From Euryarchaeota archaeon UBA10 (GTDB taxonomy: Archaea > Thermoplasmatota > Poseidoniia > Poseidoniales > Poseidoniaceae): a stretch of 58,822 nt of DNA. Shown piece after piece: positions 4,360-32,650 of the stretch (the stretch's first letter is position 1; each line of letters starts with the position of its first letter). Where the stretch lies: NCBI GenBank assembly GCA_002498185.1, contig DAGO01000089.1:12118-70939 (forward strand). Reading direction: 5' to 3'. A program made the position numbers and the translations under genes. The notes under the pieces were generated by a model that worked only from the letters and a program-made list of their open reading frames with translations, made no database searches and had not been told where the DNA came from.

Positions 4360-4977
4360 TCATTCATTTGCAAAGATACGAGAGATAGGTCCTTGTACGT
4401 CAATTTCCTCCTCTGGTAACCACTCTCTTTCGAGCAAAGTAGATTCTTGTGATTCTCTTTCACGGGCATCTTCAAATTCATCATTTGACCCATTGACCGC
4501 ATTATTCAGAGAGATTGCTTGATTGATTATGGCGAGGTGCTTATTGAGAACTGATTCTTTCAGATTTGTATCCCATACGGACAGAACCGACAGATCATCG
4601 TCTTGACGATGGATAACCCAGCATGAAAGTGAGTCTTTGGCTAACTTCAATCTATGATTACCAGGTTCTATCCAATTTTCCGAAAATTTGACCATGATTT
4701 CTGATTTTGAGACCGGTTCTGATTCCATGAAGGGGTGATTCAAGTTAACCGCTAATGGAATCTGAGCACTAGCAGAGATCAAACTACGGATTAGTAGCAC
4801 ATCTATGATAACCAACAAAACCGTAATCAGAAGCCAGTTAGCGGGCCAATATATCACTAATATTGCAAATGTTAGATTGATCACAGCAAGTGAAATCTTC
4901 ATGTTTTTAGTCGAATCGTTCAACTCTTTACCAAGAGGCGTATTCGAGAAAAGAATCAGCCCCTTTGGTGCGTCCAT
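4360..4977 (-). CDS. hypothetical membrane protein
   Basis: 205-aa ORF with two adjacent TM helices (ISLAVINLTFAILVIYWPANWLLITVLLVIIDVLLI) followed by a soluble domain. Alternative start at Met26 (4902). Confidence 0.4.
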   Translation of the reverse strand: MDAPKGLILFSNTPLGKELNDSTKNMKISLAVINLTFAILVIYWPANWLLITVLLVIIDVLLIRSLISASAQIPLAVNLNHPFMESEPVSKSEIMVKFSENWIEPGNHRLKLAKDSLSCWVIHRQDDDLSVLSVWDTNLKESVLNKHLAIINQAISLNNAVNGSNDEFEDARERESQESTLLEREWLPEEEIDVQGPISRIFANE

Positions 4978-5018
4978 AATCCCGCCACGAGCATTTAGGA
5001 CATGAAACCCTCGTCATA

Positions 5019-6764
5019 ATGCATGATTTACCCCCATCATTCAAGAAGGGTGGAATTACGAACCACCCCGTAGGGGTGCCTATGGTCGAGTTGCCGAGAG
5101 GGAATATCATCGAGGAAAGACGCGGAGGTGCAGGCATTCTCGCAACCTTGGTCAATGAGATGGTAAAACTCAACTCGAGCGGATACATTCGTACTGAAAG
5201 AACACCCGCTGAAAAGATGCCGAGAGTTGGACAAGTCGTCGTAACTAGGGGGGAAGTCAGCGCCGCAATCCATGAAGATAAAGCGATTCTTGAAGGTGTA
5301 GAAGCACTGATTGAGATCGAAGCAGATTGCACTGAACTCGACTGCCTTATTCAGTTGATTGAAGATGTAGATGTTCAACGTATTCTGGACTTACATCCGA
5401 CGGCCAAACTTACTGTTGAGACTCCTGAAGAGAGCAAATCATCACAATGGTGGGAAAATATCAGCAATCGGAAAAATGCGTGGACAAAATCCAGCAAACT
5501 ACCAACGATTGAAGCAACTATTGAGGCGCCTGAGTTTGTCAAGGCCAAAGCAGCAGCAATGGTCCACAGACATGTCGAAATGGGCACTTCGCTCAAACCA
5601 GGAAGTGTTCATTCTAATGGAAGTGAAATGATTTTCCAACTCGCATCAAATCTGAAGAATCATGGCAAACCATTGTTGGTAATCAGCAGAAAATCCCGTG
5701 AAGAATTGATGGTTAATTTCAACATACCAGCAGAGAATAGCCTCTGGTTATCGCAGAAGGAAGGAGAAGGAGTACAATTCGTTGACATCGATGCGATAAA
5801 GGGCACAGTGTATGGTTTCTTGGAAGGCAACCTAAGAGCTGTTCTTCTCCTAGATGGTTTGGAATACCTCGCAAACATTTGTGGGAGCAAACCAGTTATC
5901 GAGATGGTTCGAGAACTCGGTGACAGGATGAGATACGAAGACGACTGTCTGTTGATATCATGCGATAAATCCGCATGGACCAAATCGGAAGCGGCTCAAC
6001 TCACGAGGGCTGCACCATACCTGGAAACCTCCGTCATTTCAGCATGGAATGCTGACCCGGATTCGCTATTGGACCACCCATTAATGGCACCTCCAACCGA
6101 AGAAGAATTGCTTCGTCTAACTGAATATCTGGAAGCAAACACTCCAGAATCATTTGTCCCCGAGGAAATCGTTGAGATTGTTCCAGAACCTGTAGAAGTT
6201 ATCGAAGAGATACCTATTGAGGTAGTCGAGGAGGAAATAATCATCACTGAGACGATACAAGAAGAAATCGTGGAAGAGGTTCCTGAAGTGGTTGAGTCAA
6301 AGGGTCCAAGGAAGCCACAACGAGTCAAGAGGCGTAGGTCAAAGCACGCCAAAGTAATGAGTGCTAGAGAAGCAGGTCTTGCTGGCCTTGCTGCAATTAA
6401 AGGCGACAGAGACATTGGAGATTTGCCGATGACAAAGTCCCTGCCGAAGACAGCCATAGGCGTTGGCAAAGAAGGTGCTATGCCATCGATTCCAAACACA
6501 ATCCCAACAGAATTGAATGATGCTGCTCGCCAAGATTCCGCAAAGAAATCTAGAAATTTACCAGAAACCAAACTTGGACCCAAGGCAGTAGGTGGAAAGA
6601 AAGCCGGTTCCAAAGGAAAGGTTGTCAGTCCATTAGCAGCACGTGGAGTCGAAATCAAGCGCAACATTGCAAAGAGATCTCAAGCATCTAGTGTCCCTCA
6701 GAAGGAATTGGATATTGACAAAGAACTTGAATCTTGGAAATTTAATGAGGAGGAGACAGAATGA
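5019..6764 (+). CDS. DUF835-like domain protein with acidic E/I/V block and basic tail
   Basis: 581-aa ORF. The segment KPLLVISRKS...RAVLLLDGLEYLANICGSKPVIEMVRELGDRMRYEDDCLLISCDKSAW resembles the DUF835 (PF05763) signature. It is followed by EEIVEIVPEPVEVIEEIPIEVVEEEIIITETIQEEIVEEVPEVVE and then KGPRKPQRVKRRRSKHAK. The stop overlaps the next start (ATGA at 6761-6764). Confidence 0.5.
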   Translation: MHDLPPSFKKGGITNHPVGVPMVELPRGNIIEERRGGAGILATLVNEMVKLNSSGYIRTERTPAEKMPRVGQVVVTRGEVSAAIHEDKAILEGVEALIEIEADCTELDCLIQLIEDVDVQRILDLHPTAKLTVETPEESKSSQWWENISNRKNAWTKSSKLPTIEATIEAPEFVKAKAAAMVHRHVEMGTSLKPGSVHSNGSEMIFQLASNLKNHGKPLLVISRKSREELMVNFNIPAENSLWLSQKEGEGVQFVDIDAIKGTVYGFLEGNLRAVLLLDGLEYLANICGSKPVIEMVRELGDRMRYEDDCLLISCDKSAWTKSEAAQLTRAAPYLETSVISAWNADPDSLLDHPLMAPPTEEELLRLTEYLEANTPESFVPEEIVEIVPEPVEVIEEIPIEVVEEEIIITETIQEEIVEEVPEVVESKGPRKPQRVKRRRSKHAKVMSAREAGLAGLAAIKGDRDIGDLPMTKSLPKTAIGVGKEGAMPSIPNTIPTELNDAARQDSAKKSRNLPETKLGPKAVGGKKAGSKGKVVSPLAARGVEIKRNIAKRSQASSVPQKELDIDKELESWKFNEEETE

Positions 6765-8512
6765 GACTTTCACACCGAGAGAAACTTCAACTCGCCCTAG
6801 CTAACGCCAGAGAAAGTCTAGGGAGAGATAACACTTCAACACAACCGGCGTTATCAAAATTGAACACACTTAGGGGAGTAAAAGAGGCGATTGATACCAG
6901 AGAAGGAAACCTCCTTTCCAGAACTGGAGTGAAGACCCGTCCCACCTTTGACATTGTTGCAGACCAGATCCTTGGAGAACCAACTTCTTGGAAGCCGAGT
7001 ATTGATTTGGATGAAGGAGAAAATTCGCTTTCTCAAATCGCTGCAAAACGAATCGGTGAAATGCGAGAGAGGCAAGAAATTGAGGAAGGAGAAGAAGAAT
7101 TGCTCGGGGAATCATTTGGCATGCTAAAGGATGGCAGGCCAATATGGGCAGAAGTTCTCGATACCCAGAGAGGATACTCTACTAATTTCACAGATTACGG
7201 TATGAAAGACCTAGCATTCAGGCCTTTGTGGCCCCCCGTTCAGAAACTCTCAGACCATAATACCTGGAAAAGTTGGCATGTTGTTGAAGAAAACTCACGT
7301 GCATCAATGGCCTGTGAAAAGGTAATTGAAAAGCCAGGAATCACGATGAATCCTCTACTAATTCTTGGGGACACAGGATGTGGCAAGTCCCACATCTTAA
7401 GCGCCTCAGTTCAAGCGATGATTCGCAGACAAGATGGCAACGTACACTTGTTATCGACATCGGCAATGAGAGGGTGGGAATCACTGCCTGATGGGTGGCA
7501 AGACGCTGTTGCGCATGCTAACCTAATCGCAATCGATGACCTCCACCTTGCTGATGAAAGAATTGCAACAGAACTTGGAATGATGATTGACTATGCTCTA
7601 AACATGGGCGTACAAGTTATTGCAACATCTAGAGTTGATTCTAATGAATGGCCAGCTCGCAGATTATGGGAAGTTATGCGTTCCGCTACGAGTGTCTGGA
7701 TTAGGAAACCTAGTTCCGCTTCTCTAATCACTCACTTACGACGTAATGCAGGAGGCAGAGCACTGCTCTTAGACGATGCAATGATTGCAAGAATCGTCAA
7801 GCATGGAGGAGGGGACTGGCGAAGCACTGATGCAGCATTTGAGAAAGTCGCTCTTGCAGTTGAATCTGGAGAGCGAATTATTTCCGGCGAGGATGTTACT
7901 AGTATTCTCGAAGAAGTACCTCAAGAAATGACCGAAGTAGAATTATTCACTGAGAGAGAAGACTTGGAAGAGATTGCTTCTCGAGTTATCAGCGAAACAC
8001 TTGACCACGTTTACACTGGAAGAGATGTCGCAGGAGTCGAATTGAACGTACCTGTTCCTGAACTAAGTGACGACTGGGAAGTTCCAGAACTCACGATTGA
8101 GGAAAAGGATGAATTGCATGAAGTGCTGACTAGCAGGAACCTCACACCGCATGTAACAACCACGCTGACTGTGGACGAAAGTGATGAATTCTTGGTTCAC
8201 AGAGATGACAATCTAGACGCGTTGGACCAAGTTCGAGTTGCTGAAACTACCTCTAGCATAGATTCAATCACTGACCAAATGTTCGAGAGAATGAGTAACG
8301 AACACATAGAGCAATCAAAGAAATTAGCCGAATTAGAACAAGAAATGTTCGACTTAGCAGATAGAAGCAGAGATGCATCTGTTGAAGAGTTAATCGAAAT
8401 CGCTGACCGAGTTGGAGAGATCGAAGTAATTCTTGGAAATGTGCAAGAGCATCCAAGCTATGCTATGCTTACTCCTGTCACTGTCTTGACACCAATAGGT
8501 GAAGAGGCATGA
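6761..8512 (+). CDS. DnaA/Hda-like AAA+ ATPase (no DnaA domain IV), acidic coiled-coil C-terminus
   Basis: Walker A NPLLILGDTGCGKSHIL (7367-7390 core) and Walker B NLIAIDDLH (7523-7546). Also GVQVIATSRVDSNEW (box VII-like Arg), RKPSSASLITHL, GGDWRSTDAAF (sensor-2-like Arg) and GERIISGEDV. The order is collinear with E. coli DnaA domain III as remembered. Confidence 0.6.
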   Translation: MRLSHREKLQLALANARESLGRDNTSTQPALSKLNTLRGVKEAIDTREGNLLSRTGVKTRPTFDIVADQILGEPTSWKPSIDLDEGENSLSQIAAKRIGEMRERQEIEEGEEELLGESFGMLKDGRPIWAEVLDTQRGYSTNFTDYGMKDLAFRPLWPPVQKLSDHNTWKSWHVVEENSRASMACEKVIEKPGITMNPLLILGDTGCGKSHILSASVQAMIRRQDGNVHLLSTSAMRGWESLPDGWQDAVAHANLIAIDDLHLADERIATELGMMIDYALNMGVQVIATSRVDSNEWPARRLWEVMRSATSVWIRKPSSASLITHLRRNAGGRALLLDDAMIARIVKHGGGDWRSTDAAFEKVALAVESGERIISGEDVTSILEEVPQEMTEVELFTEREDLEEIASRVISETLDHVYTGRDVAGVELNVPVPELSDDWEVPELTIEEKDELHEVLTSRNLTPHVTTTLTVDESDEFLVHRDDNLDALDQVRVAETTSSIDSITDQMFERMSNEHIEQSKKLAELEQEMFDLADRSRDASVEELIEIADRVGEIEVILGNVQEHPSYAMLTPVTVLTPIGEEA

Positions 8513-21133: not shown

Positions 21134-21808
21134 ATGGACATCAATTCGATAAATGACCACAGTCCTTGGTGGGCAAGGGCATTCGCAATATTTCTGGGAT
21201 TTATGCTATTGCTAACAGTAGCCAACTTCTTCTATCTCGAAATATTTGGAATCAATGGAATCAATCACTACACATTTGGAAATGAGCCACTTGATCCCGG
21301 TTCTTATCCCGAAAATGGGACTGAAGAAGAACAAAGAAACTACAACAATTCTTTGAGGGAGTGGGATGATTACCAGAGTTATATGGAAATGATGGATGAT
21401 TTAGAGGAATCTTACGTCACTGAGATTTCGCAGATTTTCGCAGTCCTGACAATACTAATCGGCATACCAACAATCGCCATGTTTTGGACTCAAAATGAAA
21501 AGATGTTACACTTTGGATTAGCTTTCGGGGCGATATCGATAATTGGAGAAGTGTGGAAAGCATACATTTCTTCCGAAATTGTTGCCAATTTCATGGAAAG
21601 CGTACCCGGAGGAGGAGATTATGCTTGGATTGCCAAAACCTCCATTTTTACATCGAGCATGTGTGGGATACTTTACATTGCGTTGGCTATTGTTCTGCAT
21701 AACATGTATCACAATCTGAACGATTTACCTGAGAGTGGTTTCCATGTAAAGGTTGATACACCATATATTGAAACGGTAGACCATGGAGATAATGACATCC
21801 AACACTGA
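21134..21808 (+). CDS. hypothetical membrane protein
   Basis: The ORF has four hydrophobic helices. Start taken at MDINS, just after the pheS stop, instead of 21101. Confidence 0.4.
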   Translation: MDINSINDHSPWWARAFAIFLGFMLLLTVANFFYLEIFGINGINHYTFGNEPLDPGSYPENGTEEEQRNYNNSLREWDDYQSYMEMMDDLEESYVTEISQIFAVLTILIGIPTIAMFWTQNEKMLHFGLAFGAISIIGEVWKAYISSEIVANFMESVPGGGDYAWIAKTSIFTSSMCGILYIALAIVLHNMYHNLNDLPESGFHVKVDTPYIETVDHGDNDIQH

Positions 21809-22109
21809 AACCATTCCCGGTTTCAAGATTACTAAGTCACTAGGAGTTGCAACCGGCTCTACAGTAAGGGCGAAGCACATTGGTAAAGATATCCTAGCAG
21901 GCTTGAAAAACATTGTAGGTGGAGAGCTAAAGGCTTACACTGAACTATTGATGGAAGCACGTACTGAAGCACTGGGTCGAATGATGATGGATGCTGCACA
22001 ACGAGGCGCTAACGCAGTTGTCAATGTCAGATTTGCAACCAGTAGCGTAGCAGGTGGTGCTGCAGAATTGTTCGCATACGGAACTGCTGTCACTGTCCAA
22101 CAAGAGTGA
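21783..22109 (+). CDS. YbjQ/UPF0145 family protein
   Basis: TTETIPGFKITKSLGVATGSTVRAKHIGKDILAGLKNIVGGELKAYTELLMEARTEALGRMMMDAAQRGANAVVNVRF...LFAYGTAV is the full YbjQ signature. Confidence 0.8.
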   Translation: MEIMTSNTETIPGFKITKSLGVATGSTVRAKHIGKDILAGLKNIVGGELKAYTELLMEARTEALGRMMMDAAQRGANAVVNVRFATSSVAGGAAELFAYGTAVTVQQE

Positions 22110-22113
22110 TCAC

Positions 22114-22632
22114 ATGTACGACATTACCGCAGAATCAATACCCCTGCTGATCATTTTTGTATTAGTAGCAGTATTTGTTCTATTCTTCCCACTTGCATTC
22201 ATTTACTCCATGCTTTTTGGATGGATTCATGAATCTGGTCGCCAGAAAAAATTACTCGCTAGAGAACAAAAAGTGGCAGGAATTGTTGGAGGCGACAACA
22301 TACACACTTTATCCACGCCAATAAGTCTAGAAAAAATTTCACAATGCGGTTTAGTGATGACAAACATCACTGTATCACCATCATGGTGGCAGCTGTTCCT
22401 AGGCTCAATCAAATCTATTTTCGGTGGACAAATTCAATCCTATGACAAAGTCCTAGCTTATGGAAGAGCCGAAGCTATGCAGCGCCTGAGAGAGCAAGCA
22501 CTCGGTGAAGGCTGGAGTGAAATTATCAATGTTAGAGTTGAAACATCAATGGTGATGAACAAGGTGAAGGGCGGCCAGCAAAACAAAATGGGTACCCTCG
22601 AATTCCTTGCATATGGCACCGGAATCCGGTGA
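22114..22632 (+). CDS. membrane-anchored YbjQ-like domain protein
   Basis: N-terminal TM helix (IPLLIIFVLVAVFVLFFPLAFIY) followed by SIFGGQIQSYDKVLAYGRAEAMQRLREQALGEGWSEIINVRVE...FLAYGTGI. Start taken at MYDITAE. Confidence 0.6.
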   Translation: MYDITAESIPLLIIFVLVAVFVLFFPLAFIYSMLFGWIHESGRQKKLLAREQKVAGIVGGDNIHTLSTPISLEKISQCGLVMTNITVSPSWWQLFLGSIKSIFGGQIQSYDKVLAYGRAEAMQRLREQALGEGWSEIINVRVETSMVMNKVKGGQQNKMGTLEFLAYGTGIR

Positions 22633-22686: not shown

Positions 22687-24126
22687 ATGAGAAGGACAAG
22701 AGTAGTGGCCACTGTCGGTCCATCTTCTTGGGACCCTACAACTCTACAGTCTATTTTTGATGCCGGTGCTGATGTATTTCGGCTGAACTATTCACACGGA
22801 GAACCAGAACAAAAGACAGAGTTGTATGAAAGAATCCGTTCAATGGAAACCGAACAACGCAAGACCTGCATCTTGGCTGATTTGCCGGGTCCAAAACTCC
22901 GTCTGGGTGAGTTTGATGGAGTTAAATCACTCAATAATGGTGAATCGATAAGATTACTTTGCGGAAAAATGGAACATGATGGCGAAGAAATTCCTGTTGA
23001 ATATGATGGACTATCTGCGGATTTAAAACCGGGTGATTCAATCCTAGTTGCTGATGGATTAATCAGATTGTCAGTTACAAAAACAGGCGGGGAAAAGGGC
23101 TCGTTCATCGACTGTCTTGTAGAAGATGGAGGACCGGTAACCAGTAGAAAGGGAATCAACTTACCAGGCAATACAATCGATTTACCGGCTATTGGCGAGA
23201 AAGACAAATTAGCTCTAGACCACGCACTGAAAACTGGTGCTGATTGGATTGCAGTATCTTATGTACGAAGTGCAGAAGATTTGCGTCCCGCAAAAGATGC
23301 TGTCAAGGCTGCTGGATTACATACTCCAATTATTGCCAAAATAGAACATCCTGCAGCTTTACAAAATCTGCACTCTATTCTTGACGTCGCAGATGCAGTA
23401 ATGGTTGCTCGGGGAGATTTGGGAGTAGAGATACCTCTGGAAAAAGTACCATTAGCTCAACAGAAAATTATCGATGCAGGTTTGATGCGTGGCATGGTAG
23501 TGATTGTCGCTACTCAAATGCTTGAATCAATGACACTGAACCCTAGACCAACACGTGCAGAAGTCAGTGATGTATCGACTGCAATTAGACACGGAGGAAC
23601 TGCCGTCATGTTATCTGGTGAAACCGCATCTGGCAAGCACCCTGTTGCGGCAGTAGAAACAATGGTAAAAATCGCAACTGCGACAGAAGAAGGACTGGAC
23701 TCCTCAGGAGGAACACCAGGAGTTCTATCCAAGTTCCGTTCGACTAGAGCTGTCGCTCATTCGGGGGTTGAACTTGCCAGGGCAGCAAGCGCCAAACACA
23801 TAATCGTAGCAACCCAACACGGTAATGCTCCCCGACTAGTAACTGGATACAGGCCAGACGTGGTTGTGACTGCTGTGACAGATCGTATTCGAGCTGCTCG
23901 CAGAATGAACCTACTACCCGGAGTAAAATCTGTAATCGTCAAAGAGCACGAGAGAGGTTCCAAAACCATGCAGAATGCGATCAGAGAGATTGCTAAAGAT
24001 GGAACCATCAAATCTGGAGATAGAATTGTGGCAATTTCAGGTTCTCCACAAGCAATGCGTGGAGCGACTAGTACTGTCAGATTATATCGTTTGGAATCGG
24101 ATGGAAGTATTTCTGGAACAGAGTGA
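22687..24126 (+). CDS. pyk: pyruvate kinase
   Basis: RRTRVVATVGPSS, FRLNYSHG, ADLPGPKLR, IIAKIEH, MVARGDLGVEIP, TQMLESM and MLSGETA are canonical pyruvate kinase blocks. Confidence 0.9.
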   Translation: MRRTRVVATVGPSSWDPTTLQSIFDAGADVFRLNYSHGEPEQKTELYERIRSMETEQRKTCILADLPGPKLRLGEFDGVKSLNNGESIRLLCGKMEHDGEEIPVEYDGLSADLKPGDSILVADGLIRLSVTKTGGEKGSFIDCLVEDGGPVTSRKGINLPGNTIDLPAIGEKDKLALDHALKTGADWIAVSYVRSAEDLRPAKDAVKAAGLHTPIIAKIEHPAALQNLHSILDVADAVMVARGDLGVEIPLEKVPLAQQKIIDAGLMRGMVVIVATQMLESMTLNPRPTRAEVSDVSTAIRHGGTAVMLSGETASGKHPVAAVETMVKIATATEEGLDSSGGTPGVLSKFRSTRAVAHSGVELARAASAKHIIVATQHGNAPRLVTGYRPDVVVTAVTDRIRAARRMNLLPGVKSVIVKEHERGSKTMQNAIREIAKDGTIKSGDRIVAISGSPQAMRGATSTVRLYRLESDGSISGTE

Positions 24127-27092
24127 CACCAAGACGCTTTTTTCTGCGCAAGGTTCAATGCTGGAGTTCCATGTCGATGGCCATGGGTCTTAATCCTGTG
24201 AATGGTATATTGGTCGCCACCGGCCTGATATTGGTATCTCTCAATCTGGCATTAGCGTCTTATGCAACCGGCGAAGTTCCTGCTGCTGTAGAAGAAGCCG
24301 TTGCGATGAAAGTTAAGGACGATATTTGCGAAAATACTCTTTGTACTGAAGTAAGTGAAGACTGGTCTGAATCGACCTCGCAAAGAGATTTCTTTGCATG
24401 GCACATAACTAATGTCGACGAGGTAATAATGGATAATGCAGAGCCTATTTATGAAAAAATTGGCCCTGTAACTTATGATGTCACTCTCAAGCGGGAAGTC
24501 GATAATTATGACATTAAGAATGGGCTATTGACATACAAACAATTGACATCATATTCATGTTCTGAAGATACCTTAGTACCATGCTCAACAGAGGTTAGCC
24601 AATTGAATATCGCGTTTAACCCACAGGTAGTTGGAGCCACTGGAACCGCAATCAACGCTGTCATGGACATTACCAAAACGGGATTCGTATCTGGAGTTGT
24701 TGGAATACACTTGAAACAAGTAACAGCAGCTCAGGCTGTTGCGGATGAAATCCAATATGAACACATGGCCAATCTAGCCGCTGTTGAAGGCCCAGGTGAC
24801 ATCTACATCATCGATACTGAGATGCATAATTCTGCTGAATCTTATTTCCTCGAGGGGATGTTTGAAGCGTTTAATGATGCATATGGCGACGCATTCCTAG
24901 ATGATGACACTAAGACTTACCTGAGCGAAGGCGGAGTTGACCCTCGCTGGGTTGATGGAGTTTGGAATGACGACGGAGATGGCATTCTAGAGCCAGATGA
25001 AGAGTGGGGAGGTTTCAACGAAACAGGAGCTCGAATTGGGGACTTGAACGGAAACGGAATCATCGATAATGAATCCAGCAGCTTCGTTTCCACCTTGAAT
25101 CTAGATTATGCATTCTATGAAGCAGTAGGTCCTGACGGAGAGAACCTATCCCTTGTCAATTACATGGGCCCTCTGGTTTACGCTGCAATGGGTGAGCCTG
25201 ATTCATTAGAATTCATCCAAGAAAATCCTGAAGAATCTGTCACACTCGAGCGTGCAGAATTGTGGAATTTCGCACATCCTACAGACCTAAACATCACACT
25301 AGCAAGAGATTGGACACTTTATGGAGGAATGGGTGCATTGATGCTTGACTACGGGGCAGGCAATGATGATTACCTAACCGATTATTCAGAAGACGGAGTC
25401 AACCTTTCGGTAAGAGTTGAACGCCTATTTGGTATCGAAATGGATGATGCTGTTGCCTCAGATGTTCTTACTATGGGTGATGGCACTGACGAGCCATTGG
25501 GAATTTTGGCAGTCAGCGAGTCAGGGACTTCATTCGGATTAACTGAATTCCTAGAAATGGATCAAACCACTGCGGTCGAAACCTACGGAGTAACTGGATA
25601 CCAGCACCAAGTTTTGAAGAAATTTTGTAACGACTGGATGGATAACGTCGCAACTCTACCACTGATTCTAGTTGGTGGAGAGGGCTACATATCTGCATCT
25701 CAGTTCGTCAACCAAACATTCGGTTCCGTAAATCCAATCGACAATGAGTACATGGAGTACTCACTCAATATTGGAGGAATGTGGGGTACTGGAACATATG
25801 GCTTCCCAGCTGGAGACCCGATCGACTTAACACAAGAACAGAGTTCTGAAATGCTGTACGGTGATTGGGGCCTAACTACTGCAAAGGGCGCAAGTATGTT
25901 CCTTTATGGTGAGTTGAGCGGCAAAACTTTGCCGATCAATTATTCAACCGAGGAAAGGACTGAGGCTAAAGAGTGGACAAATGAAACAGTTGCTGAGATA
26001 TATGGAATCGATGTTGAGGCTGCTGGTGCAGCAAGGCTACTAATGATGGAAGTAGTGTTCAAAAATTTCGTTCCCGACTTCCTAATTGATTCATTTGGAA
26101 CCAGTAAGTATCTCACACAACCTGTTGACAACTGGCTATTAGGCTGGCATGACCCTGTGAATGCATATTTGGCGACAGGTGATTCTGAAAATATGACCGC
26201 TGGCTGGACTAGCCTTGAAGCGAATGAAACATTCTTTGGTTCTGCTGCATATGTTGAGGGGGGAATATCTACAGGTGACCCTGCTAAAATCACGATTTGC
26301 ACAGGCGAGGCTGATTCCTGTGACAAGGGAGAAACCGTACAGGTTGGAGACAGCGAGTATGTAAGTTGGAGAAACAAGTCAAAGGAAAGTGCAACCTACG
26401 GATTGATTAACGCCGAATTGCAAAGTGAAACCACTGGCGGATTCATCACAGGAGATGGCGACAAAATTGACTTATCGGGATACGGAACTGCTGATGTGAA
26501 GTGTGAGAAAGAAAGCACTCTCAAAGGAATTCCTGTAGACGTATGTACTGCTTCTATGGATCCATTGGAAAGATCAATACAAGCCAAACTAATCAACAGC
26601 GGAGATCTCCTCGATGCTATCCCCGGCGCACTACCAGTGTTCTTTGGAAGCGATGTCGAAATCAAAGTCGAACAGTTGAGTGGAGCAATTATTGGCGGTA
26701 AATCGGAATCAACATTCTGGCTGGATACTAGAAACATCACAGACCAAAAAACCCCTCCTGAAATGTCTGATTTGCAAGAGGTATTCGTCATCAAGACTGC
26801 AGCAGAACTGGACGATGAAACTGCGGAATCTATGGAATCTCAAATCGTCACGAATCAAGACTTCTTTGCATTCTTTACTAACTTTGACCATTGGTCAGAT
26901 TATGTTGCTCTTAGCTTATGGATTGGAGGGTTTACCTCGCTCCTAATTGGTGCAGCATTAATTTTCAAGGGGGATAGCAAGGAAGTTTCTGGTTCAAAAT
27001 GGGGAGACGAACCTGAATCTACTGATTTCACTGGTGAAGTCAAGAAAGAACTCGATGAACCCAATGAAGAACCTCAACCAGAGGAATTATGA
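24123..27092 (+). CDS. CD36/LIMP-2 (scavenger receptor class B)-like two-TM surface protein with large insertions
   Basis: TM helices sit at both ends ([36 protein letters not shown]). Collinear motif matches to human CD36 as remembered: [32 protein letters not shown] vs [44 protein letters not shown] vs [22 protein letters not shown] vs VNLKGIPVYRF. The start is uncertain (GTG at 24123 overlapping the pyk stop, or ATG at 24171). Confidence 0.5.
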   Translation: [989 protein letters not shown]

Positions 27093-27148: not shown

Positions 27149-28069
27149 ATGCAGCCTGCAGCCGTAAGTATCCCGACTCAAGCCGTGATGCCACAAACTG
27201 AGCCCCGATTTAAAGACAAAGAAGCCAGCACCATCAATGGATTCATTGGACTACTAATCCACTTATCCCTGAGTGTATTCAATATACTGTTATTGGCCAC
27301 TGGACCAGGGGCACTTCTTCTGATAATCACCGGCCCAATTTGGCTAGTATTGTGGAATTCTTACGTAATTGTGAATCCAAATGAAGCAGTAGTGACTCAA
27401 TTCTTTGGACGATATGTCTCAACTCTAAAAACAGAAGGTTTCAGATTTTTCTTTAACCCTCTGTACAGCAAGTCAAAGATTTCATTCAAGATCAACAACT
27501 TCGAATCCAGCAAATTGAAAGTTAACGACGTTAATGCGAACCCAATCGATATTGCAGCTGTTGTTGTCTGGAGGGTCTATGATGCTGCAGAAGCAATGTT
27601 CGAAGTAGAGAACTACGGGCATTATGTCCAGATTCAAAGCGAAGCAGCCCTGCGTGAAATGGCTACGAAGTACCCCTACGATGCTATCGAAGAGAAAGAT
27701 ATTGGAGGAATCACACTCTCTAGTCACCAAGATGAAATCGCAAAGCAATTGCAACAATCTGTTGAGGCTCGTCTAGCAAGAGCCGGTATCCAAGTATTGG
27801 AGGCTAGAATCTCTTACCTCGCTTATTCTACAGAAATTGCACAAGCAATGCTACGCCGCCAGCAAGCGAGCGCAGTCGTTGCAGCACGTCGTGAGATCGT
27901 CGACGGAGCAGTCGGCATGGTCGAACTTGCACTACAACAACTATCTACCAAAGGAATCATTGAATTAGACGAGGATAAAAAAGCGACAATGGTTAGTAAT
28001 CTGTTAGTCGTGCTATGTTCTGAGACTGATACAACGCCTGTCGTTAACACCGGAACATTGTACCAGTGA
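27149..28069 (+). CDS. SPFH/Band-7 domain membrane protein
   Basis: An N-terminal TM hairpin is followed by VVTQFFGRYVSTLKTEGFRFFFNP...IDIAAVVVWRVYDAAEAMFEVENYGHYVQIQSEAALREMATKYPYD and an Ala/Gln-rich coiled-coil segment, which is typical SPFH. Confidence 0.8.
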   Translation: MQPAAVSIPTQAVMPQTEPRFKDKEASTINGFIGLLIHLSLSVFNILLLATGPGALLLIITGPIWLVLWNSYVIVNPNEAVVTQFFGRYVSTLKTEGFRFFFNPLYSKSKISFKINNFESSKLKVNDVNANPIDIAAVVVWRVYDAAEAMFEVENYGHYVQIQSEAALREMATKYPYDAIEEKDIGGITLSSHQDEIAKQLQQSVEARLARAGIQVLEARISYLAYSTEIAQAMLRRQQASAVVAARREIVDGAVGMVELALQQLSTKGIIELDEDKKATMVSNLLVVLCSETDTTPVVNTGTLYQ

Positions 28070-28845
28070 GGTTGGTTGAAATGAGAACAGCACCAAAAGT
28101 AGTTCTTGTAATAGGATTAGTTCTAACTATAATTGGAATTGTTGGTTTTGCAATAGGCATGGATAGCGTTTCAGAGATTGAAGAAGAATTTACCAAGTAC
28201 GAGCTTGAAAATGTAACAAACGGAACAATTGTCATAGAAGACACAGACGGTTATGGAGACCTAGGCGTGACATTTTGGGTCAAGGGAGTCTACGAAGATG
28301 CGAATGAAAATGGCGAATGGGATGTCTGTGAATCGACGACAATAACAGTCCTATCCGCTCCTGAAGTCAACACCGAATGGGATGAAGACCTAAATGGTGA
28401 GTTCTATTATGAAGGAAATTATGATGCATACGGCAATGTCAGCAATTGTGACTCTAATTCTCTAAACAAAGTTCTGGACAGAGAAAGTGATGGACTAGTT
28501 AAGGTTGGAAGAGCGTGTTTAGCGTGTTATTCAGGCAATCTTACTTTCGAATCTAATGTACCTGTATGGGTAACCTATGATGATAAGTTAGCTGAAGAAA
28601 TCATTGATGAAATCGGCGCTTTATTCCTTGGATTCATCGGTGGCTTTGGAGGATTGTGCTGTGGAATTATATTCCTGATTATTGGAATTATCATGGCCCT
28701 TACAATGAAGGATGATGGTCCTAAACAAATGATGTACATGCCACCAGCTGACAATCAATTGATTGCTCAGCAACCTGGAAGCCAACCAACCACCACACAC
28801 ATGTCACAACCAGACTTTGGAAATCCTCCTCAAGGCGGACTATAG
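28066..28845 (+). CDS. hypothetical two-TM protein with Cys-containing extracytoplasmic domain and P/Q-rich tail
   Basis: 259-aa ORF. A GTG start overlaps the SPFH stop (GTGA); the alternative is ATG at 28081. No family recognised. Confidence 0.4.
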   Translation: MRLVEMRTAPKVVLVIGLVLTIIGIVGFAIGMDSVSEIEEEFTKYELENVTNGTIVIEDTDGYGDLGVTFWVKGVYEDANENGEWDVCESTTITVLSAPEVNTEWDEDLNGEFYYEGNYDAYGNVSNCDSNSLNKVLDRESDGLVKVGRACLACYSGNLTFESNVPVWVTYDDKLAEEIIDEIGALFLGFIGGFGGLCCGIIFLIIGIIMALTMKDDGPKQMMYMPPADNQLIAQQPGSQPTTTHMSQPDFGNPPQGGL

Positions 28846-29631: not shown

Positions 29632-32394
29632 TTATTCACTCTCTGTATTTGCAAGGTACTTTTGAGCATCTTGCTTTAGGAAAGGAGTGTACATTGCAGG
29701 TAATACAAACAGACTAGATACCAATGCTAGAATGATTGCTACCACGAATACCTGACCGAATAATTGCAGCGGTACAAGTGAAGAGAAATTCAGAACTGAG
29801 AAACCACCTGCAGTGGTTAATGCCGCTCCGAACATGGCCCGACCGGTTGTTGCAACAGATTTTGTTGACCAAACTACAGGGTCAGCACTCGGTGCATGCT
29901 CTACTTCCTCCTCCAGTCTAGTCGTAAGGTGTACTGCATAGTCAACACCTAATCCGAGTGTGAGGGCACCAATCGTAACAGTTTGTGAATTCAATTGATA
30001 TCCGGTAAGTCCCATGATACCATATACCCAAACAACGACAACCATCAATGGAATCCAAGTTACAAACCCTCTTGCAGCACCACGAATAACATCCTTCTGC
30101 CTCACCGTATTTATTCCAACTAGCATCAGTAAAATTACCGCAGCAACTGTACCAGTTGATATGACTGCGGAGTCAGCAACATCTGCAGTAACTTGTGCTA
30201 GAATTAGTGAGCGTCCAGATAATTGAACGGTGAAATCTCCACTACTGTCATCAGCAATCTCTGCAAGATTTGCGGAAAGTTCGGACTCAAAATCAGCGGT
30301 AGCTTGCCAATCCAAAGTCGCTGCTTGGAAGGAGATCACAGTTTGTGAAGCGTCTGAATTAAGATTGCCTGAAGAAATATTTCTTCCATCTTCTGTTAAC
30401 AACCAAGTCTCAAGAGCAGCCCAAGATGATTCATCATCACCCAATCCACTCATCAAGGCATCAAGTTCGCTATTTGTTGTGCGTGAATCTTCTAGAACAG
30501 ACCATATTCCAATAGGCAATCCCGTCGTTTTCGGATTATCTGATAACTCCAGTACAACACTATCATACAGCGCCCTACCGTCTTGCGAGATTACATCACC
30601 ATCCAATACTGCATACAATGGCGAGGGACTACTCCGGAATTCATCAGCGATCAGTAAGAAATCTTGTACGACTGGAACCGAATCATCGAAATTGTCTCGG
30701 GTATCGAATCCTACCTCTAATTGTTGGAAACCGAGGAACATTGGGACCGATATCAAAATTGTAACGACTATCACTTTTTGTGGCACATTGACCAGTGAAC
30801 CAATCCATGAAGACACCGGGCCAATGTCATTCTTGCCTGACTTTTGCAAAGGCAGTTTCTTTGGCGGTATAATCATCATTAATGCCGGTAATGCAGTAAT
30901 ACTCAACAGATAGATGAAGAACAATCCGATTGCGATTACGGTACCAAACGAGACCAAAAATTGCTGAGAAGAGAATCTGAACGATAGGAAACCAACCATG
31001 TCGGTAAAGATAGCAACCATCAATGCTGCAGAAGTGAGAATAGTTCCTTTGCGGATAGCGATTCTTCTAGCCTCGATTGAAAAATCTCTCAGGGTTTCTC
31101 TTCCCTGTGGGTCTGCCTTCTCTTTGTCTTGCAACTCCTCCCTGATTCTGGCCACTACGTGCAAACCATAGTCAACACCGATTGCCAACAGTAAAATTGG
31201 GATTGAGTTCATCGCTGCATTGAATACCATTTTCACACCTAAAACTGTGAGCAAACCAGCCATTCCGTATGTCGCTAAGATTGCAAACACAGTCAATACC
31301 AATACATTTGCAGTATCCCGCTTACTTCGGAACTTGGTCCATAATATGAAGCCAAGAAGCAGAAGACAGAGGGAGTTTAGAATTCCCAATTCTTTGCCGA
31401 GGTTTGCGTTTTGTCCAGTTGCAAATTGAGAGAAAGAGAACACAGAAATTTCCGAATCACCCGTTTCAGATTTCGCTTGTGTAGCTAATTCTTCTGCCCA
31501 TTCACTAACCTTTTCTTGTACATCTCCAATAACTTCAACTCCGTGCTCACCTGGCTCGGTTACTACTACGAAAGTAGTCAGTACTGGGCCATCAGAGCCC
31601 CATGGATCGACAGAATCCTCAGCCGGTAAATTGGAAATCATCATTGAGCGATAATCAATAGATTGCATACCCATTAACATTCCAATCTTCCCAGAGATTG
31701 GTCCAGTTACAATTGCAATTTCACTGCTGTTTGGGCCCTGAATTAGATTGGTTAGATCAGTGGATAAATCTGACAATATTGATGTTATATTTGCCCCTTC
31801 ATCTATTCTTTCGAGCCACAAGTTAGGGTCTTCTGGTTGCCAATTCCTCAAATCGGCAGCACTTACCAAACTTGGGCTTGGAATGCTTGCACTAACTGTG
31901 CTCAAGTTAGCAAGAGTGCCAGCTAGGCTCTCATTGTCCGAAGATGCAACTGCATCAATTGCTGATTGTAATCCAGAAATCCAAGATTCTGCCGTTAATG
32001 GATCTTGTAGACTATGCCACTGAATTGCAGCACTTGCCATCCCGCTGTTAGGCTGTATTCCGAACAGAGGATATTGATACTCCTGCAAGTCCTGATTTTC
32101 CAACAAAATCGCTTCTAATGTAGCGAGTTGCTCCCACGTAGATTCTTCGTACAAGTCTCCTGAATCGATATCGTCGATGAATCGGATGAAGTCAATTGAG
32201 GCTTGATATTCATCCTCGACCTCATTCAGCAATCTGACAGTCTCATTATCGGGGAAGAAAGCATCCTCACTGTTGTCGAAATTGATGAACATAGCATTAG
32301 GTGTTAATGAAAAGATGAATACCAATATGATTGCAATTGTCGTTTTTGGCCTCTCCGTACTGAGACTAGTCATACCGTCAAAAATTCTCTTCAT
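29632..32394 (-). CDS. RND-superfamily (MMPL/SSD-type) exporter
   Basis: 920 aa with two repeats of TM1, a large loop and a five-helix bundle. GVDYGLHVVARIREE and GVDYAVHLTTRLEEE recur at equivalent positions, as is typical of MMPL/HpnN-like RND proteins. Confidence 0.8.
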   Translation of the reverse strand: MKRIFDGMTSLSTERPKTTIAIILVFIFSLTPNAMFINFDNSEDAFFPDNETVRLLNEVEDEYQASIDFIRFIDDIDSGDLYEESTWEQLATLEAILLENQDLQEYQYPLFGIQPNSGMASAAIQWHSLQDPLTAESWISGLQSAIDAVASSDNESLAGTLANLSTVSASIPSPSLVSAADLRNWQPEDPNLWLERIDEGANITSILSDLSTDLTNLIQGPNSSEIAIVTGPISGKIGMLMGMQSIDYRSMMISNLPAEDSVDPWGSDGPVLTTFVVVTEPGEHGVEVIGDVQEKVSEWAEELATQAKSETGDSEISVFSFSQFATGQNANLGKELGILNSLCLLLLGFILWTKFRSKRDTANVLVLTVFAILATYGMAGLLTVLGVKMVFNAAMNSIPILLLAIGVDYGLHVVARIREELQDKEKADPQGRETLRDFSIEARRIAIRKGTILTSAALMVAIFTDMVGFLSFRFSSQQFLVSFGTVIAIGLFFIYLLSITALPALMMIIPPKKLPLQKSGKNDIGPVSSWIGSLVNVPQKVIVVTILISVPMFLGFQQLEVGFDTRDNFDDSVPVVQDFLLIADEFRSSPSPLYAVLDGDVISQDGRALYDSVVLELSDNPKTTGLPIGIWSVLEDSRTTNSELDALMSGLGDDESSWAALETWLLTEDGRNISSGNLNSDASQTVISFQAATLDWQATADFESELSANLAEIADDSSGDFTVQLSGRSLILAQVTADVADSAVISTGTVAAVILLMLVGINTVRQKDVIRGAARGFVTWIPLMVVVVWVYGIMGLTGYQLNSQTVTIGALTLGLGVDYAVHLTTRLEEEVEHAPSADPVVWSTKSVATTGRAMFGAALTTAGGFSVLNFSSLVPLQLFGQVFVVAIILALVSSLFVLPAMYTPFLKQDAQKYLANTESE

Positions 32395-32521: not shown

Positions 32522-32650
32522 TGCCGGGAGCGGGGCTTGAACCCGCGACCTTCGGATGTCTCAGACATGTGAAGGGGCTTTGGTACGTCACAAAAAGTTC
32601 CTTAGAACTGCCCTATGAGTCCGACGCGCCACCAACTACGCCACCCCGGC
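32522..32650 (-). tRNA. elongator tRNA-Met (anticodon CAT) with 56-nt intron at position 37/38
   Basis: Minus-strand read: GCCGGGG-TG-GCGT-AGTTGGTG-GCGC-G-TCGGA-CTCATA[56-nt intron GGGCAG...CTGAGAC]A-TCCGA-AGGTC-GCGGG-TTCAAGC-CCCGC-TCCCGGC-A. G1:C72 and an anticodon stem without GGG/CCC argue for elongator rather than initiator. Intron TGAG can pair with anticodon-loop CTCA, and GGGC pairs with GCCC, which is compatible with a bulge-helix-bulge. Confidence 0.85.

Follow-up and report, generated by a model that had tools for sequence, protein, structure and literature searches.

Class B scavenger receptors (SR-Bs) are membrane proteins in which two terminal transmembrane (TM) helices enclose one large ectodomain. 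The eukaryotic members CD36 (SCARB3), SR-B1 (SCARB1) and LIMP-2 (SCARB2) have an internal tunnel through which they move fatty acids, sterols and phospholipids. In the literature, the CD36/SR-B family as a whole is treated as eukaryotic and traced back to the last eukaryotic common ancestor. SR-Bs show lineage-specific expansions of the apex, and non-metazoan ectodomains are 413 to 2,294 amino acids (aa) long (Boohar et al. 2023, PMC10715195). Here, we report a CD36-like gene in the chromosome of an archaeon. It lies on the plus strand of a 58,822-nucleotide (nt) stretch of DNA from Euryarchaeota archaeon UBA10 (Poseidoniaceae; contig DAGO01000089.1, positions 12,118-70,939 of the forward strand). 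This stretch is referred to as the window, and all coordinates are positions in it.

The latest evolutionary survey of the SR-Bs comprised 165 eukaryotes and no prokaryotes (PMC10715195). The CD36 fold is nevertheless not strictly eukaryotic, the actinobacterial LmcA/PgfA (DUF3068) being a published structural relative (PMC8972800, PMC9678360). The original prediction for this gene, made from the letters of the window, had called the family overwhelmingly eukaryotic, which holds for the surveyed literature but not for the fold. LmcA/PgfA (MSMEG_0317, Rv0227c; PF11271; PDB 7N3V, 7SHW) is a prokaryotic, membrane-anchored envelope protein with an elongated, CD36-like β-barrel and internal cavities, which are comparable to the cavity of CD36 that holds palmitate (PMC8972800). 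PgfA binds trehalose monomycolate and interacts physically with the MMPL-family exporter MmpL3 (PMC9678360).

The archaeal protein shares with the eukaryotic SR-Bs, those of protists included, the arrangement of two terminal helices around one ectodomain, profile homology from end to end, the predicted barrel fold, the motifs [FW]-x-[IV]-T-N, GP-x-[TV]-Y, WL-x-G[WY]-x-DP and LKGIPV, and a helix before the second TM segment (TM2). Like many non-metazoan SR-Bs, it has a large apex expansion (PMC10715195). It differs from the eukaryotic proteins in its archaeal host, its intron-free gene, its housekeeping neighbourhood, a sequence identity of 13-19%, four cysteine pairs of the archaeal family's own in place of the metazoan disulfide pattern, an apex domain without detectable homology to the protist expansions and an extremely acidic ectodomain. 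LmcA/PgfA, in turn, is far smaller, lacks both the three-helix apex and a large apex domain, belongs to another phylum and envelope type, and acts in mycomembrane and lipoglycan trafficking.

The gene almost certainly encodes a true archaeal member of the CD36/class B scavenger receptor family (PF01130). Its product scores 46.4 bits against PF01130 (gathering score 26.5; E = 2.7e-12), the best stretch placing aa 73-175 on profile positions 35-134. This is the only meaningful Pfam match of the protein; NCBIfam returned no match, nor did Pfam when the C-terminal fragment was searched alone. At the family level, PF01130 is matched by 44 of the 44 aligned members (best E = 1.3e-19), and ten divergent full-length members each pass it singly with 29-68 bits. 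In divergent members, the first TM segment (TM1) aligns as well, to profile positions 2-35. Single-sequence phmmer against the PDB gave no match. A profile of 32 homologues, searched against PDB sequences, had CD36 or LIMP-2 as its eight best matches; these were weak (E ~0.08-0.16) and lay in the N-terminal motif region, with a collinear sub-threshold match just before TM2 in the same search.

Profile-profile comparison extends the homology over both halves of the ectodomain. The human reference sequences were checked beforehand: CD36 is identical to PDB 5LGD chain A across 472 residues, and LIMP-2 and SR-B1 were confirmed by exact look-up. A search seeded with human CD36 returned, among the matches listed, only mammalian CD36 and gave a narrow, mammal-only profile. 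Against this profile, hhalign assigned the N part of the archaeal family a probability of 95-97% (E = 2e-8), and the C part (aa 630-935, numbered from Met17) a weak match (E = 0.0016, probability 16%) in which 249 columns are collinear with CD36 160-459. The C-part score of 33.1 nonetheless exceeds all 60 column-shuffled controls (16.2 +/- 2.3, maximum 22.6). Because the mammal-only profile was too narrow, protist sequences from the supplement of PMC10715195 were added, resulting in a broader profile of 13 eukaryotic SR-B ectodomains (Diphylleia, Rigifila, Volvox, a chlorophyte, zebrafish and human). With this profile, the full-length comparison reached 99.3% probability (E = 1.4e-20) over 643 columns, end to end, the N part 98.3% (E = 2.5e-14) and the C part alone 97.2% (E = 4.3e-11, 242 columns). 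The archaeal hidden Markov model (HMM) scores the expanded-apex protist forms SR-B_5 and SR-B_7 of Diphylleia rotans at 47 and 39 bits, versus 7-20 bits for human proteins, and in SR-B_5 a second significant hmmsearch domain (i-E = 1.5e-9) spans the last apex helix together with the WL-x-G[WY]-x-DP motif.

The original prediction had rested on the topology and on five motif pairs shared with human CD36, all of which were recovered in a single collinear hhalign alignment. The reading frame and the motif positions were also correct: residues 89-120 correspond to 24387-24482, residue 672 to 26136 and LKGIPV to 26520-26537. A chance resemblance of low-complexity sequence, which could have undone that proposal, is contradicted by the full-length hhalign E-value and by the shuffled controls. 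When six archaeal motif words were sought in 279 published eukaryotic SR-Bs, only 'NIAF' occurred, twice, and thus this set holds no close eukaryotic relative.

The predicted structures point to the same family. The AlphaFold2 model of the query, built with the family alignment, is of moderate confidence (predicted local distance difference test score (pLDDT) 73.4, predicted TM-score (pTM) 0.62) and shows β-strands at aa 83-161 and 663-895 with a mostly helical region between them. In a Foldseek search of the PDB, its top 13 matches were LIMP-2/SCARB2 and CD36 ectodomains (E 4.9e-7 to 1.2e-3, probability 1.00), with ~300 of ~390 columns aligned and a target-normalised TM-score of ~0.40. As an independent replicate, a ~45% identical paralogue (P0108) was modelled (pLDDT 81.9, pTM 0.72), and it gave the same ranking, with LIMP-2/CD36 as top 13 and LmcA thereafter (best E = 2.5e-7, TM-score 0.43, root-mean-square deviation (rmsd) 5.7 Å). 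The ectodomain is thus predicted, from models of this kind, to be the asymmetric antiparallel β-barrel of CD36, interrupted at its membrane-distal apex by a helical domain of ~430 aa.

Mycobacterium smegmatis LmcA (7N3V/7SHW) follows LIMP-2/CD36 as second-best structural match of both models (E ~1e-2, probability 0.97-1.00), with ~150-240 columns aligned (TM-score 0.27-0.32) versus ~300 for LIMP-2. An LmcA-type compact barrel with a single protruding helix was considered and set aside: the apex is large and helical, and the fold match is weaker than that to LIMP-2/CD36. PF11271 (PorA/DUF3068) does not match the CD36-like protein even at E ≤ 10, whereas two of the 44 members match it at E = 0.0016. 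Judged by these profiles, the CD36-like protein is not a PorA/DUF3068 member, and the two weak matches hint at a possible sequence-level link between CD36 and DUF3068 through the archaeal clade.

The gene and the parts of its product are arranged as follows, with residues numbered from the first codon of the maximal open reading frame (ORF).

24123-27092, plus strand: CD36-like gene, maximal ORF of 989 aa; its start codon, GTG, shares bases with the stop codon of pyk (GTGA), and its own stop codon lies at 27090-27092.
24171-24173, plus strand: ATG (Met17), the likely true start, from which the product has 973 aa.
24198-24266, plus strand: TM1, N-terminal hydrophobic helix, aa ~26-48 (Kyte-Doolittle windows >1.6; helix 25-50 in the model).
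24273-24767, plus strand: N-core of the CD36 ectodomain, aa ~51-215, with long β-strands at 83-161 and the first apex helix at 165-219.
24768-26060, plus strand: family-specific apex insertion, aa ~216-646, ~430 aa, mainly helical.
24966-25076, plus strand: sub-insertion, aa 282-318, with two EF-hand/dockerin-like 12-residue loops (aa 282 and aa 307), found by regular expression.
26061-26861, plus strand: C-core of the CD36 ectodomain, aa ~647-913, with the last apex helix, a 23-residue motif stretch, F-LDTR and long β-strands at 781-895.
26901-26966, plus strand: TM2, aa 927-948, from hydropathy (helix 924-949 in the model), aligning to TM2 of CD36.
26967-27089, plus strand: C-terminal tail, aa 949-989, short, acidic and presumed cytoplasmic, poorly conserved and with pLDDT <50.

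The proposed CD36 topology, one hydrophobic helix at each end of a large ectodomain, is borne out by hydropathy and by both models. Only two hydrophobic segments are present, aa ~26-48 and 927-948, and both AlphaFold models form helices at them. This fits the operational SR-B definition; since the assignment is based on hydropathy alone, cleavage of TM1 is possible, and the N-terminal helix may be a cleavable signal peptide instead. An anchor of the PGF-CTERM/archaeosortase type was ruled out, as there is no PGF motif and a 41-aa tail extends beyond TM2. The protein is very acidic (169 D+E versus 51 K+R), with an ectodomain of ~875 aa. In the archaeal family, four cysteine pairs co-occur (C69/C74, C146/C154, C726/C733 and C794/C808) and one N-E-T sequon, at N701, is invariant; both features are consistent with an extracellular ectodomain.

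The N-core holds F-x-W-x-I-T-N-V, followed downstream by GPVTYD and LNIAF. Between the N- and C-terminal matching parts, the original prediction had placed an insertion of ~400 aa. Such an insertion is present, although its size is closer to 430 aa. It falls between segments aligning to CD36 residues ~141-175 and ~160 onward and is therefore placed within the apex helices. In the family alignment it is conserved to the same degree as the core, and pLDDT is 79-93 across its aa 320-550. Pfam contained no match to it, and a fold search in the PDB and in BFVD, a viral structure library, yielded nothing significant. Homology to the apex expansions of protists was rejected, since hhalign against mammalian and protist SR-Bs, these expansions included, was not significant. 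The sub-insertion with the two loops is subclade-specific: it occurs in nine of 32 aligned members, so that the alignment has ~70% gaps there, and its pLDDT is low. No Pfam model matches the loops, and on their sequence pattern it is possible that they are putative Ca2+-binding sites on the apex domain.

The translation start probably lies at ATG 24171 rather than at the GTG overlapping the pyk stop. This start is preferred because the first ~16-20 residues of the 989-aa ORF are gapped in 92% of homologues and the closest homologue (P0001) counts 973 aa. The ATG sits 44 nt past the pyk stop, after a spacer that contains a T-run. The proposed GTGA overlap with pyk is thus real for the maximal ORF, whereas the gene itself probably begins downstream of it. 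The GTG extension would bring the sole basic residues N-terminal of TM1. As homologues begin ~16 residues later, the 5' end of the gene would be set too far upstream by gene callers that favour the longest ORF.

A search of 5.8 billion proteins returned 114 relatives down to ~40% identity, nearly all with a precomputed PF01130 assignment. The named ones belong to Poseidoniales or Thermoplasmatota, and one of them (P0114) is a 'CD36 family protein' at NCBI. An HMM search of 1.84 billion cluster representatives yielded 246 proteins at E ≤ 0.001, a count so low that the family is small and sharply bounded. Among the 150 of these 246 matches that were listed, all had E <2e-11; about a dozen are full-length (843-969 aa) and most others are short fragments. 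One divergent cluster originates from Thalassarchaeaceae, and both Poseidoniales families are therefore represented. The survey of archaeal genomes called for by the original prediction found at least 128 matching stretches in the GTDB species representatives; the 80 listed all belong to Poseidoniales or marine euryarchaeal metagenome-assembled genomes (MAGs), and single-cell genomes and a 1.53-Mb contig are among the loci listed, the best of which, with 97% identity, carries the genus label MGIIa-K1. These proteins form the first archaeal clade of the known CD36 family. Literature searches on CD36 with archaea or Poseidoniales found no paper describing archaeal CD36-family proteins; the novelty lies in the literature and not in the databases, because automated pipelines already tag the proteins with PF01130 or as CD36 family.

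Orthologues (48-97% identity) always lie directly 3' of pyk, in the block pheS-(TM protein)-ybjQ-ybjQ-pyk-CD36-like gene, the synteny of which is kept in more than 25 species-level genomes. A second paralogue group (~42% identity) is found elsewhere, near MCM, Trm1, PAC2, AIR synthase or an IcmF-type mutase, and several genomes carry both paralogues. In the window, pyk (PF00224/PF02887) precedes the CD36-like gene and an SPFH/Band-7 gene (PF01145) follows it. The native context assigned to the gene at the outset was correct as to pyk, the SPFH gene and the conservation of the locus, with the restriction that the SPFH gene accompanies only some of the orthologous loci. Because it is missing from several of them, a functional coupling to SPFH was rejected. 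The gene is native to the archaeal chromosome and contamination is excluded, given the conserved synteny, a GC content equal to that of the flanks, the absence of introns, archaeal-type neighbours (MCM, Trm1) and an apparent intron-bearing tRNA in the window. A recent transfer from a eukaryote is unsupported, as none of the archaeal motif words except 'NIAF', with its two occurrences, is found in the 279 SR-Bs.

The explanation that we consider best, and moderately probable, is that the gene encodes a CD36-family surface protein with a lipid tunnel that most likely serves uptake. With its two terminal helices as membrane anchors, the protein would capture a hydrophobic ligand at or near its large apex and channel it through the barrel, between the surroundings of the cell and the outer face of its membrane. 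Its physiological role would be to supply these heterotrophs, which encode fatty-acid degradation, with fatty acids or lipids taken up from outside. A surface lipid tunnel is the best-supported mechanism because of the palmitate-holding cavity of CD36 and the comparable ones of LmcA, the ligand of PgfA and the presence of fatty-acid degradation in all Poseidoniales genera (PMC6461757). We infer tunnel, ligand class and transport direction from these analogies, by which the handling of lipids or other hydrophobic ligands is rather probable, while uptake as the direction of transport is a tentative choice with a little less than an even chance.

Several observations weigh against this explanation. 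The identity to eukaryotic SR-Bs is low, and the structural similarity is moderate (TM-score ~0.4, rmsd ~6-7 Å) and stems from predicted models of moderate confidence. In eukaryotes, SR-Bs serve as receptors for adhesion or recognition as well, lipid transport not being the sole function of the family. No operon partner hints at lipid catabolism, as the neighbours, those of the paralogue loci included, are housekeeping genes. When translation starts at Met17, no basic residues precede the first helix, which could then be a cleaved signal peptide. Finally, the metazoan CD36 disulfide pattern is not kept and the CD36 cysteines are unmatched in the alignment; in the SR-B survey, this ectodomain pattern is treated as metazoan-specific (PMC10715195).

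The analogy with PgfA/LmcA also allows the reverse traffic, in which the protein would work outward and bring lipids or lipid-linked envelope parts from a membrane exporter to the surface or S-layer. This is unlikely, yet several lines of evidence lead to it: the rank of LmcA directly behind LIMP-2/CD36 in the fold searches, the weak PorA/DUF3068 matches of two members, the fact that PgfA contacts an MMPL-family exporter and binds its cargo (PMC9678360), and the unusual mixed membrane lipids predicted for Poseidoniales (PMC6461757). Moreover, an MMPL/Patched-SSD (RND-type) gene of 920 aa is located at 29632-32394 on the minus strand, ~2.5 kb 3' of the CD36-like gene, and such a gene is near the orthologue in many loci. 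The linkage is, however, found only with closer orthologues (≥64% identity) and is absent within 8 kb in two other loci (L019, L024) and in nearly all paralogue loci; the two genes are convergent and not co-transcribed, and the protein scores as CD36 instead of PorA/DUF3068. As the synteny is confined to a subclade, the MMPL protein and the CD36-like protein as a lipid hand-off pair are kept as a lead only. A receptor for recognition or adhesion, whose apex would bind a macromolecular partner (an algal cell surface, vesicles, particles or a virus that uses the protein as its receptor) while lipids would hardly be channelled, if at all, appears still somewhat less probable. It would account for an apex domain that is conserved as well as the barrel, and agrees with the eukaryotic apex being the ligand-sensing region with lineage-specific expansions (PMC10715195), with the binding of proteins and pathogens at the apex of CD36 and LIMP-2 (PDB 5LGD, 9FJF and enterovirus complexes), with the two Ca2+-loop-like motifs of one subclade, which are of a kind typical for adhesion modules, and with the suggested particle association of Marine Group II (MGII) archaea (PMC6461757). 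Pfam and fold searches, on the other hand, recognised no adhesion domain, strong conservation extends to the barrel core, which in eukaryotic members makes up the tunnel, and one protein may both bind a partner and transfer lipids.

That the resemblance to CD36 is spurious, arising from chance or low complexity, from eukaryotic contamination or from a mis-binned contig, is effectively refuted. The low identity to eukaryotic proteins, the empty single-sequence search of the PDB and the insignificant C half against the mammal-only profile would speak for it. They are outweighed by the hhalign results with the broader eukaryotic profile, for the full length as well as for the C half, by a C-part score above every shuffled control, by the PF01130 match of all aligned members and by two independent models that retrieve the same folds; an intron-free gene with local GC content and an archaeal synteny across many MAGs, single-cell genomes and the 1.53-Mb contig likewise argue against a foreign origin. 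An uptake of carotenoid antennas, by analogy with NinaD/SCARB1, was also considered and is unsupported, since the proton pumps of Poseidoniia seemingly bind no carotenoid antennas (PMC12137139).

A native, duplicated and well-populated CD36 clade in one of the most abundant groups of marine archaea has consequences for the history of the family, as membership alone already widens its known taxonomic range and supplies an outgroup or transfer partner for reconstructing its origin. A far-reaching version of this explanation is that an ancient, vertically inherited Poseidoniales CD36 clade (MGIIa and MGIIb, two paralogues, no close eukaryotic relative) acts as the gate by which fatty acids and lipids enter from outside and represents the first prokaryotic importer of the SR-B type; taken as a whole, this is doubtful. 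If true, and together with the actinobacterial DUF3068 proteins, it would mean that the CD36 lipid-tunnel fold predates eukaryotes or that an exchange took place between an early protist and a marine archaeon. The CD36-like protein is in any case a concrete candidate for lipid or fatty-acid uptake in MGII, and would provide a prokaryotic version, independent of glycans and free of introns, of a lipid-tunnel fold that is medically important, with a novel apex domain.

The surroundings of the gene show some further features. Two tandem, overlapping genes of the YbjQ family (PF01906) lie at 21783-22109 and 22054-22632 on the plus strand, the second with an N-terminal hydrophobic extension, and the pair is kept 5' of pyk in most orthologous loci. 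At 28066-28845 (plus strand), a 259-aa protein with hydrophobic segments at its N- and C-terminus and a cysteine-rich, acidic middle is encoded; its start overlaps the SPFH stop, it matches DUF4064 below threshold only, and it accompanies the SPFH gene where this is present. Among the paralogue loci, L030 carries at 4537-7887 (plus strand) a 1116-aa fusion of B12-binding, MeaB and methylmalonyl-CoA-mutase parts (IcmF-like, acyl-CoA metabolism), and such a gene is directly 5' of the CD36-like paralogue in L028 and L030 but not in other clades. An intron at the anticodon loop of a tRNA is typical of archaea. A tRNA at 32522-32650 (minus strand), missed by ARAGORN, has an Rfam match of 129 nt to a 71-position model, a length that suggests an intron; by its sequence it would be a tRNA with a CAT anticodon, the loop of which is followed by an intron of ~55 nt.

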